From: Escherichia coli
GTDB lineage: Bacteria; Pseudomonadota; Gammaproteobacteria; Enterobacterales; Enterobacteriaceae
Assembly: GCF_003334335.1 (NCBI RefSeq)
Contig: NZ_QOWQ01000011.1
Strand: one strand, 5' to 3'
Length of the DNA: 64,000 bases
A program made the translations under genes and the position numbers. Positions within the stretch are counted from its first letter, which is position 1; the number at the start of each line of letters is the position of its first letter. Positions 41,298 through 44,544 of this stretch are shown here, in pieces. Under the pieces are notes generated by a model, which ran no database searches, had not been told where the DNA came from, and was given only the letters and a program-made list of their open reading frames with translations.

Positions 41298-41306
41298 TTT
41301 TTGAGA

Positions 41307-41338
41307 TAAAAATGCCAGCCGATCGGGCTGGCATTTTG
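41307..41338. terminator. Bidirectional intrinsic terminator between macB and cspD
   Basis: A5 run, then ATGCCAGCC-GATCG-GGCTGGCAT, then TTTT. Confidence 0.8.
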
Positions 41339-41369
41339 CCTTTAGGATGTACACAATGAGACAGAAGAG

Positions 41370-41594
41370 CTATGCGACTGCCGCTTCTACTTCGACGGGC
41401 ACAATAACACTGGCGTGATTGCCTTTTGGCCCCTGGTGGACATCAAACTGAACGGATTGTCCAGCTTTTAGCGTTCTGTAACCATCCATCTGAATGGTGG
41501 AATAATGAGCGAAAATATCTTCGCCGCCGCCTTCAGGGCAGATGAAACCAAACCCTTTGGCATTGTTGAACCACTTAACAGTACCCTTTTCCAT
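41370..41594 (-). CDS. cspD: Cold-shock-domain protein CspD (stationary-phase replication inhibitor), 74 aa
   Basis: ATG at 41592-41594 gives MEKGTVKWFNNAKGFGFI with RNP1 motif. Confidence 0.92.
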   Translation of the reverse strand: MEKGTVKWFNNAKGFGFICPEGGGEDIFAHYSTIQMDGYRTLKAGQSVQFDVHQGPKGNHASVIVPVEVEAAVA

Positions 41595-41916
41595 GCTTCG
41601 ACATCCTTCGCAAATCTTATACAAGTAAGATGGAATAAACCGGGGTCAGAGAGGGGGCTGTTCAAAACCTCGCCAACTCTAGAAATACAATTTAGAGAAT
41701 TAGGGCGAGCCGTCAAGCATTTGACAGGGGACAAGGGGCAGGTATGAATCAAAAATTTGAAGCAGTTAACGCTATTGACAGGAATGTGACAGATGTCGCT
41801 GATGCCAACGATAGATGATAGTTATCTATCATGTGGAGTAGATTGGTCAGGCAAATAAGCTCTTGTCAGCGGCAGGGCGTTCTGCCGATAACCGTAACCG
41901 AAGATGATAACTGACA

Positions 41917-42237
41917 ATGGGTAAAACGAACGACTGGCTGGACTTTGATCAACTGGCGGAAGAAAAAGTTCGCGACGCGCTAAAACCGCCATCTATGTAT
42001 AAAGTGATATTAGTCAATGATGATTACACTCCGATGGAGTTTGTTATTGACGTGTTACAAAAATTCTTTTCTTATGATGTAGAACGTGCAACGCAATTGA
42101 TGCTCGCTGTTCACTACCAGGGGAAGGCCATTTGCGGAGTCTTTACCGCCGAGGTTGCAGAAACCAAAGTGGCGATGGTGAACAAGTACGCGAGGGAGAA
42201 TGAGCATCCATTGCTGTGTACGCTAGAAAAAGCCTGA
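41917..42237 (+). CDS. clpS: ClpS, N-degron adaptor for ClpAP, 106 aa
   Basis: 106-aa ORF starting [17 protein letters not shown]. Confidence 0.92.
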
Positions 42238-42267
42238 ATGCAGGCATAAAAATTGGGGGAGGTGCCT

Positions 42268-44544
42268 ATGCTCAATCAAGAACTGGAACTCAGTTTAAAT
42301 ATGGCTTTCGCCAGAGCGCGCGAGCACCGTCATGAGTTTATGACCGTCGAGCACTTGTTACTGGCGCTGCTCAGTAACCCATCTGCCCGGGAGGCGCTGG
42401 AAGCGTGTTCTGTGGATTTGGTTGCGCTCCGTCAGGAACTGGAAGCCTTTATTGAACAAACCACACCCGTTCTGCCTGCCAGTGAAGAGGAGCGCGACAC
42501 ACAGCCGACGCTGAGTTTTCAGCGTGTACTGCAACGTGCGGTCTTCCATGTCCAGTCCTCCGGTCGCAATGAGGTTACCGGTGCAAACGTTCTGGTCGCT
42601 ATCTTTAGCGAACAGGAGTCGCAGGCGGCATATCTGTTGCGTAAACATGAAGTCAGCCGTCTCGATGTGGTGAACTTTATCTCTCATGGCACGCGTAAAG
42701 ACGAGCCGACACAGTCTTCTGATCCTGGCAGCCAGCCAAACAGCGAAGAACAAGCTGGTGGGGAGGAACGTATGGAGAATTTCACGACGAACCTGAATCA
42801 GCTTGCGCGCGTGGGCGGAATCGACCCACTGATTGGTCGTGAGAAGGAGCTGGAGCGTGCTATTCAGGTTCTCTGCCGTCGCCGTAAAAACAACCCGCTG
42901 CTGGTGGGGGAATCTGGTGTCGGTAAAACCGCGATTGCGGAAGGTCTTGCCTGGCGAATTGTTCAGGGCGATGTGCCGGAAGTGATGGCTGACTGTACGA
43001 TTTACTCTCTCGATATCGGTTCTCTGTTAGCGGGCACAAAATATCGCGGCGACTTTGAAAAACGTTTTAAAGCGTTGCTCAAGCAGCTGGAGCAGGACAC
43101 TAACAGCATCCTGTTTATTGATGAGATCCACACCATTATCGGTGCGGGTGCAGCGTCTGGTGGTCAGGTCGATGCGGCTAACCTAATCAAACCGTTGCTC
43201 TCCAGCGGTAAAATTCGTGTAATTGGTTCGACAACCTATCAGGAGTTCAGCAACATTTTCGAGAAAGACCGTGCTCTGGCGCGTCGCTTCCAGAAAATTG
43301 ATATTACTGAACCGTCGATCGAAGAAACTGTTCAAATCATCAATGGCCTGAAACCGAAGTATGAAGCGCACCACGACGTGCGTTATACCGCAAAAGCGGT
43401 GCGTGCGGCGGTAGAGCTGGCGGTGAAATACATTAACGATCGTCATCTGCCGGATAAAGCCATTGATGTTATCGACGAAGCGGGCGCTCGCGCACGCCTG
43501 ATGCCGGTAAGCAAACGCAAGAAAACCGTTAATGTGGCGGATATTGAGTCCGTGGTGGCCCGTATTGCACGCATTCCAGAGAAGAGTGTTTCTCAGAGTG
43601 ATCGTGATACCCTGAAAAACCTCGGCGATCGCTTGAAAATGCTGGTCTTCGGTCAGGATAAAGCCATTGAGGCGCTGACTGAAGCCATTAAGATGGCGCG
43701 TGCAGGTTTAGGTCACGAACATAAACCGGTTGGTTCGTTCCTGTTTGCCGGCCCTACCGGGGTCGGGAAAACAGAGGTGACGGTACAGCTTTCGAAAGCT
43801 TTGGGCATTGAGCTTCTGCGCTTTGATATGTCCGAGTATATGGAACGCCATACCGTCAGCCGTCTTATTGGTGCGCCTCCGGGATACGTTGGTTTTGATC
43901 AGGGCGGTTTGCTGACTGATGCGGTCATCAAGCATCCACATGCGGTGCTGCTGCTGGACGAAATCGAGAAAGCGCACCCGGACGTGTTCAATATTCTGTT
44001 GCAGGTGATGGATAACGGTACGCTGACCGATAACAACGGACGCAAAGCAGACTTCCGTAACGTGGTGCTGGTGATGACCACCAACGCCGGGGTACGGGAA
44101 ACTGAGCGCAAATCCATTGGTCTTATCCACCAGGATAACAGCACCGATGCGATGGAAGAGATCAAGAAGATCTTTACACCGGAATTCCGTAACCGTCTCG
44201 ACAACATTATCTGGTTTGATCATCTGTCAACCGACGTGATCCATCAGGTGGTGGATAAATTCATCGTCGAGTTGCAGGTTCAGCTGGATCAGAAAGGTGT
44301 TTCTCTGGAAGTGAGCCAGGAAGCGCGTAACTGGCTGGCCGAGAAAGGTTACGACCGGGCAATGGGCGCTCGTCCGATGGCGCGTGTCATCCAGGACAAC
44401 CTGAAAAAACCGCTCGCCAACGAACTGCTGTTTGGTTCGCTGGTGGACGGCGGTCAGGTCACCGTCGCGCTGGATAAAGAGAAAAATGAGCTGACTTACG
44501 GATTCCAGAGTGCACAAAAGCACAAGGCGGAAGCAGCGCATTAA
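42268..44544 (+). CDS. clpA: ATP-dependent Clp protease ATP-binding subunit ClpA, 758 aa
   Basis: ATG at 42268 gives [14 protein letters not shown]; two AAA+ modules with Walker A GESGVGKT and GPTGVGKT. Confidence 0.92.

Follow-up and report, generated by a model that had tools for sequence, protein, structure and literature searches.

Attachment sites of lambda/P4-type integrases form a class defined by core-type inverted sites around an overlap of 6-8 bp, together with arm-type sites in attP, and the P4-like members of these enzymes usually target the 3' ends of tRNA genes. PICIs (phage-inducible chromosomal islands), a phage-dependent type of mobile island, are recognized by their gene set (int, alpA, primase/replication genes and packaging or capsid-redirection genes), a size of about 10-15 kb, a unidirectional organization and the lack of tail and lysis genes (Fillol-Salom 2018, PMC6092414). 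The main text of that study counts eight PICI-specific att sites in E. coli that are never used by prophages, and its int-att test was performed on the authors' representative element (PMC6092414). In its supplementary table (Fillol-Salom et al. 2018, ISME J, PMC6092414), the att 'ATGATAGTTAT', located between cspD and clpS, is listed for two islands, EcCIIHE3034 (NC_017628.1:920272-930825, 10.5 kb) and EcCI18098 (10.8 kb), while ACATTATTAATATCGTGA is given as the att of another island.

The inverted repeat analysed here, which lies upstream of clpS, is that same site: it occupies the same locus, contains the same core ATGATAGTTAT and does not differ in kind from the site of EcCIIHE3034 and EcCI18098. 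The att site is already in the literature, and the repeat is a real, functional and known feature; what we add is the arrangement of attB and attP as dyads about GATAGTT, putative arm-type repeats, the occupancy of the site (365 of 5,426 genomes) and its overlap with the -35 region of clpS and the stop codon of yljB. A repeat in a well-studied region is explained in this manner as an entry hot spot for mobile islands, at which both neighbours, the end of yljB and the core promoter of clpS, are rebuilt.

Our window, meaning the whole stretch of 64,000 nucleotides that was analysed, is E. coli DNA and carries macB (+), cspD (-, 41370-41594), yljB, clpS (+, 41917-42237) and clpA; a window position equals the NC_000913.3 position minus 880,996. 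The spacer between cspD and clpS is 322 bp long, its copy in the window is identical to that of MG1655, and it is found at an identity of at least 95% in almost every one of the 5,426 complete genomes of E. coli. The following features of the locus are referred to throughout:

41744..41818, + strand: yljB, a small ORF of 24 codons (RefSeq annotation)
41810..41830, no strand: attB dyad in its proposed recombination register, with B arm GATAGAT at 41810-16, overlap GATAGTT at 41817-23 and B' arm ATCTATC at 41824-30; centre at 41820
41815..41832, no strand: inverted repeat ATGATAG-TTAT-CTATCAT, duplicated at both island ends with one C/T difference at 41826
41815..41825, no strand: 11-bp ATGATAGTTAT, identical in attB and attP, the published att of EcCIIHE3034 and EcCI18098
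41815..41820, + strand: -35-like ATGATA of the main clpS promoter, deduced from the transcription start and from conservation, within the shared att core
41839..41844, + strand: -10 hexamer TAGATT of the clpS promoter, with T1, A2, A4 and T6 invariant in 41 aligned Enterobacteriaceae
41851, + strand: main clpS transcription start (Cappable-seq, score 35.85)
41917..42237, + strand: clpS, downstream of the site

An earlier note on this DNA had described a perfect 18-bp palindrome about 85-100 bp upstream of the clpS start. The location is right, as ATGATAGTTATCTATCAT (41815-41832) begins 102 nt and ends 84 nt before the clpS ATG (41917), and the arms ATGATAG (41815-21) and CTATCAT (41826-32) are indeed perfect over 7 bp. 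The palindrome as a whole is not: the TTAT between the arms is asymmetric and not self-complementary, so that perfection does not extend over 18 bp, and the reverse complement of the repeat reads ATGATAGATAACTATCAT. A second perfect 7-bp inverted repeat, GATAGAT (41810-16) and ATCTATC (41824-30), with a spacing of 7 nt, overlaps the first. Symmetry alone proves nothing about 41815-41832, because inverted repeats of this size are frequent: the window holds 62 with perfect 7-bp arms and loops of 0-8 nt, against 41 +/- 8 in dinucleotide shuffles. The non-randomness of the repeat comes from outside evidence, namely insertion breakpoints, conservation and position in a promoter. The 21-mer GATAGATGATAGTTATCTATC, for its part, occurs once in the window, even with 3 mismatches permitted.

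When metagenome contigs were anchored on a conserved upstream 20-mer, several from E. coli proved identical to the window through ...GATAGATGATAGTTAT and then continued into foreign DNA, which begins with a tyrosine integrase gene of 412-415 aa. A complete genome, that of strain 266917_2, carries a 10,749-bp element between yljB and clpS. Direct copies of the core delimit this island, attL and attR both reading ATGATAGTTAT(C/T)TATCAT, and the same holds in IHE3034; the duplicated end sequence of the 266917_2 island is the 18-mer of the repeat exactly, bar the C/T difference at 41826. We re-examined the published IHE3034 locus and found the same junctions as in 266917_2. The four sites of both islands, with the common GATAGTT in brackets, read as follows:

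attB: GATAGAT[GATAGTT]ATCTATC
attP: TATAAAT[GATAGTT]ATTTATC
attL: GATAGAT[GATAGTT]ATTTATC
attR: TATAAAT[GATAGTT]ATCTATC

By sequence, attL and attR are the exact reciprocal products of attB and attP, and IHE3034 and 266917_2 give identical tables of the four sites. About the common GATAGTT, attB and attP each form a dyad, and the two differences between them, G/A at 41814 and C/T at 41826, mirror each other about 41820. By sequence comparison, the inverted arms flanking GATAGTT are ATAGAT/ATCTAT in attB and ATAAAT/ATTTAT in attP. The attP junction itself, in which the right end of the island is joined to its left end, was found in an IMG/VR contig (UViG_3300019373_000108). The contig continues through attR into clpS, and because it includes attR and host DNA it may reflect a tandem array or a mixed assembly and not a free circle. 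Islands bounded by the repeat are thus present in E. coli, empty and filled alleles coexist in the species, and a joined-ends junction exists. Taken together, these observations make it very probable that the repeat is the core of the chromosomal attB for a family of PICIs of about 10.5-10.8 kb with a P4-type tyrosine integrase, situated inside the clpS promoter. The 7-nt overlap and the assignment of arms are inferred from the symmetry of the sites and from the positions at which attB and attP differ.

Further elements of the att sites agree with those of the lambda/P4 class. A tandem pair of GGTGTAGTTAAT is located at -96/-84 from the overlap and another at +136/+148, and this word occurs nowhere else in the element; judging by this distribution, the pairs on both attP arms are likely to be arm-type sites. 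The site therefore resembles those of lambda/P4-type integrases in several respects: an enzyme with arm-binding and catalytic integrase domains, inverted arms around an identical 7-nt overlap, tandem direct repeats on both attP arms, and an adjoining AlpA-like excision/regulation gene. It departs from the usual P4-like choice of a tRNA gene 3' end, since its target is a promoter region between two protein-coding genes. Clusters of a different repeat, (G/T)TGTTCG, are also seen in both attP arms (L202:780-1000 and L202:11400-11470), with four copies on the integrase side and at least three on the other; they may be sites for the AlpA-like protein or for another accessory factor.

A recombination scheme can be proposed from this anatomy. 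Two integrase protomers would bind the inverted arms (consensus ATARAT) of each partner, and staggered strand exchange would take place inside the common 7-nt GATAGTT, as in lambda-type recombination, with cleavage points placed by inference. The intasome would be assembled with the GGTGTAGTTAAT arm-type repeats (two per attP arm) and the AlpA-like excisionase/regulator. As the island carries its own 11-bp core and nearly its own arms, integration would leave attL with a restored yljB and attR with a restored clpS core promoter, and host promoter or regulatory constraint on the block ATAGATGATAGTTATCT (-40 to -24) would offer the integrase a stable target. In the comparison of junctions, attR shows no alteration from -36 onwards in the downstream direction, and even ATAGAT differs by a single change, to ATAAAT. 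Integration restores both the -35-like ATGATA of clpS and the yljB stop because the 11-bp shared core holds the two of them.

The genes of the 266917_2 island encode an integrase, an AlpA-like HTH excisionase/regulator, an Icd-like protein, a DUF4222 protein, a primase, an SSB, a prohead-protease/capsid fusion and a TerS-like DUF1441 protein. The integrase is a 412-aa ORF that starts about 180 bp inside attL, contains the domains PF00589 Phage_integrase (5.5e-18) and PF13356 Arm-DNA-bind_3 (5.8e-16), and also matches the phrog_1 integrase. The gene set by which PICIs are recognized was found in the cspD-clpS islands of both 266917_2 and IHE3034, and the content of the 266917_2 island is a typical Gram-negative PICI gene set. 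Phage records match parts of the element only (the packaging/capsid region and the primase), covering at most 15% of it in one record; they are mostly lambdoid and about 78-94% identical.

In the complete genomes of E. coli, the site is occupied in 365 of 5,426 (~7%), a genome being counted when its match took in 80% or more of an attL junction query of 201 nt and hence crossed the junction. Among the unoccupied genomes listed, this query is matched exactly as far as the end of the 18-mer, with a single C/T mismatch. The spacer is contiguous in 5,057 and non-contiguous in 369 of the same 5,426 genomes, a number that agrees with the 365 junction-positive ones. Studies of clpS/clpA or cspD regulation in natural isolates should thus check for an island 85 bp upstream of clpS, and the annotation of the cspD-clpS spacer merits an attB feature and a mapped clpS promoter.

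A scan of IMG/VR with ATGATAGTTATTTATC gave 55 matches, two of which were the island and the rest chance 16-mers, and no use of the site in other genera was seen in this collection, where most integrase loci begin at the integrase gene and are consequently devoid of flank. An integrase 76% identical to that of the island, and accompanied by the same arm repeats, adjoins another core, ACATTATTAATATCGTGA, from which it follows that this integrase clade retargeted its core and kept its arms. A few kb away, downstream of clpA in 266917_2 (L202:14617-16351), we also observed a second tyrosine integrase with a degraded island (IS1 copies, YfjI and TOTE-system fragments), following two RtT sRNA annotations just past clpA; this region would be a second integration hot spot close to the first.

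Two metagenome contigs show a junction of another sort. In one of them (L121, 21-31% GC), a LacI-family gene contains in its middle 72 bp identical to window 41754-41825, and a second contig (L152, 1-720) switches from E. coli sequence into this same gene exactly at 41825. None of the complete E. coli genomes matches the far side of the breakpoint, and we do not count this 'type C' breakpoint as an additional kind of insertion. Its probable origin is an assembly chimera, seeded by short words that the sequences have in common (for instance ATAGATGATAGTTAT, which encodes I-D-D-S-Y in the LacI-family gene), though two independent contigs show it.

The attachment site is embedded in the promoter of clpS. 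Cappable-seq data (Ettwiller 2016 GTF) contain a strong + strand start at U00096.2 922,070, i.e. window 41851, with a score of 35.85 and 7 nt past TAGATT; weak + strand starts lie at window 41637, 41833 and 41907, and the neighbours of the main start score 2.9-4.0. Relative to this start, TAGATT occupies -12 to -7 and the repeat spans -36 to -19. The hexamer ATGATA matches TTGACA at 4 of 6 positions, which makes for a weak -35, and is separated from TAGATT by an 18-bp spacer. The main clpS promoter is accordingly composed of ATGATA, an 18-bp spacer and TAGATT with +1 at 41851, a definition resting on one TSS data set and on conservation. A promoter/terminator scanner did not call it, its score being 8/12, and the TSS set of Kim 2012 has no + strand start in the cspD-clpS spacer. 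The earlier note had argued that the repeat was not a terminator, and this view is borne out: the scanner reported no intrinsic terminator at 41815-41832, where the AT-rich stem runs into GTGGAG, with no T-run, and the repeat stands upstream of the main clpS start.

Two other aspects of clpS transcripts were noted. A + strand start in Kim 2012 (368 reads, NC_000913.2 921,583, i.e. window 41364) is assigned there to clpS with a 553-nt leader; it is situated immediately beyond the terminator of macB, 6 nt short of the cspD 3' end, and is directed antisense through cspD towards yljB and clpS. From 41851, the 5' UTR of clpS folds at -21.5 kcal/mol (z -2.0): UUGUCAG (41863-41869) pairs with CUGACAA (41911-41917), overlapping the clpS start codon, around an inner GC-rich hairpin GCGGCAG/CUGCCG (41865-41892). 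TGTCAG and CTGACAATG in this 5' UTR are both conserved in Enterobacteriaceae, and the fold may be a translation-control structure.

Conservation of the block was assessed on an alignment of 41 Enterobacteriaceae sequences, 34 of them unique over 41800-41852. ATAG (41811-14), G41817 and TTAT (41822-25) are invariant in all 41, and CT (41826-27) is kept in at least 90%; the remainder of the right arm, ATCAT, varies, its outer bases 41829-32 being the least conserved. Taken pair by pair, the 7-4-7 dyad is symmetric in 14-31 of the 34 unique sequences, and the dyad centred on 41820 in 24-33 of 34 for its five inner arm pairs; at the extended pair 41813/41834, all 34 have A-T. The core ATGATAGTTAT is found at the corresponding position in many genomes of Klebsiella, Citrobacter, Salmonella and Enterobacter. 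The conserved dyad, and the one that fits recombination, is centred on 41820, that is 3.5 bp to the left of the 41823.5 around which the repeat had first been drawn. The proposal to look for the original dyad upstream of clpS in related species thus has a mixed outcome: the 7-4-7 form is not conserved outside Escherichia, whereas the left arm, the centre and the shifted dyad AGAT-N7-ATCT are. Conservation of ATAGATGATAGTTATCT between genera is best read as host promoter or regulatory constraint.

These data leave room for the view that the 7-4-7 symmetry is a chance by-product of a site in which the left part and the centre alone matter, a view we consider possible though somewhat unlikely. 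Repeats of this size do occur near chance frequency (62 against 41 +/- 8), and the weak conservation of the outer right-arm bases 41829-32 points in the same direction, but TATCAT is kept at attL on the island side too. Island types A and B moreover share ATTTATCA, and because of this common sequence the similarity between attB and attP covers most of the right arm. On the side of chance, attP lacks the exact 7-4-7 register and has a dyad of its own in the 41820 register; on the other side stands the A-T pair at 41813/41834, common to all 34 sequences.

The block could also be both attB and the operator of a host dimeric regulator of clpS-clpA, acting over the -35 region. Such a dual function is compatible with the attB reading, and we judge it unlikely. 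The AT-rich dyad over -36 to -19 of a sigma-70-type promoter is reminiscent of operators that overlap the -35 element (classical repressor sites), but differs from them in that conservation of the drawn dyad does not extend across genera, the right arm varying with little compensation, and in that a consensus scan detected no cognate regulator. PhoP reportedly represses clpS in Salmonella. In favour of an operator, ATAGATGATAGTTATCT exceeds in both length and conservation what a -35 hexamer calls for, and its invariant bases fit the low-information LysR/Nac-type pattern ATA-N9-TAT (6/6, with 0/300 for random 51-bp segments). Comparison with regulator motifs, as the earlier note had suggested, was nevertheless fruitless: none of the 16 consensus sequences scanned matched convincingly, and no convincing match was found to Fur, PhoP, NsrR, IscR, CRP, ArcA, Lrp, IHF, Fis, LexA, OmpR, DnaA or MqsA. 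Nor did a literature search give binding data for the block. The sole ChIP site found for the spacer, a published PhoB ChIP-seq motif (TGTCACATTCCTGTCAAT, window 41773-41790, - strand), lies 25-40 bp upstream, and its source table gives no significant change of cspD or clpS RNA. The operator for a dimeric regulator proposed in the earlier note is retained as a dyad for a dimer-type DNA-binding protein at -36 to -19, the protein in evidence being the PICI tyrosine integrase and not a regulator of clpS. A bolder variant, which we hold to be distinctly unlikely, would make ATAGATGATAGTTATCT the operator of a host clpS-clpA regulator (e.g. LysR-type, binding ATA-N9-TAT) onto whose dyad the PICI integrase evolved, the P arm ATAAAT copying the host ATAGAT in such a way that regulation survives integration. 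The strong conservation around the -35 is in any case a modest lead to a regulator of the N-degron adaptor ClpS.

Last, the repeat might be read at the RNA level, as a hairpin that directly follows the yljB stop in a transcript of yljB and clpS and influences stability, processing or coupling. This reading is highly improbable, and we rejected it because of where transcription starts, the weak z-score and the scarcity of covariation. The repeat does begin at the yljB stop, forms a 7-bp stem within a larger fold of -12.8 kcal/mol and has weak + strand starts upstream of it (window 41637 and 41364), but the main start at 41851 is downstream, so that most clpS mRNA is without the repeat, the fold has a z-score of -1.74 with 15 of 200 shuffles folding equally well, each pair survives in 14-31 of the 34 sequences and compensatory changes are nearly absent, Citrobacter does not preserve the yljB frame, and an Rfam search of 41300-42300 (E<=1) finds nothing at the repeat.

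On the attB reading, which we prefer, the end of yljB belongs to the recombining sequence. Both the left arm of the repeat and the shared att core take in the stop codon TGA (41816-18) and the in-frame TAG that follows it; yljB is intact at attL and still annotated in the island carriers 266917_2 and IHE3034. Its product is one of those small proteins for which PMC10117436 cites the annotation of Weaver et al. 2019, and the gene is listed among western-blot-validated sORFs (PMC8921622). The yljB frame is not maintained in Citrobacter and most other genera, where the A-run that follows the ATG differs by 1 nt, despite high conservation of the DNA. This conservation probably stems, at the DNA level, from CRP sites of cspD, and YljB may be an Escherichia/Salmonella-specific by-product ORF.

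The cspD side of the spacer offers a few additional observations. Two upstream blocks, TTTGAAGCAGTTAACG and TGTGA-N6-TCGC, fit the two CRP sites (-83.5 and -112.5) reportedly described by Uppal et al. 2014. They are conserved and stand at these same distances from the cspD transcription start (window 41680, Kim 2012). The two putative CRP sites stand on either side of the PhoB motif TGTCACATTCCTGTCAAT, which also overlaps one of the copies of a direct repeat, TTGACAGG (41721-41728 and 41775-41782). Finally, a sub-threshold Rfam match to the cspA thermoregulator (41.6 bits for a gathering threshold of 78, E 4e-9) extends over cspD and its 5' UTR at window 41306-41699 on the - strand, and probably reflects csp-family homology.
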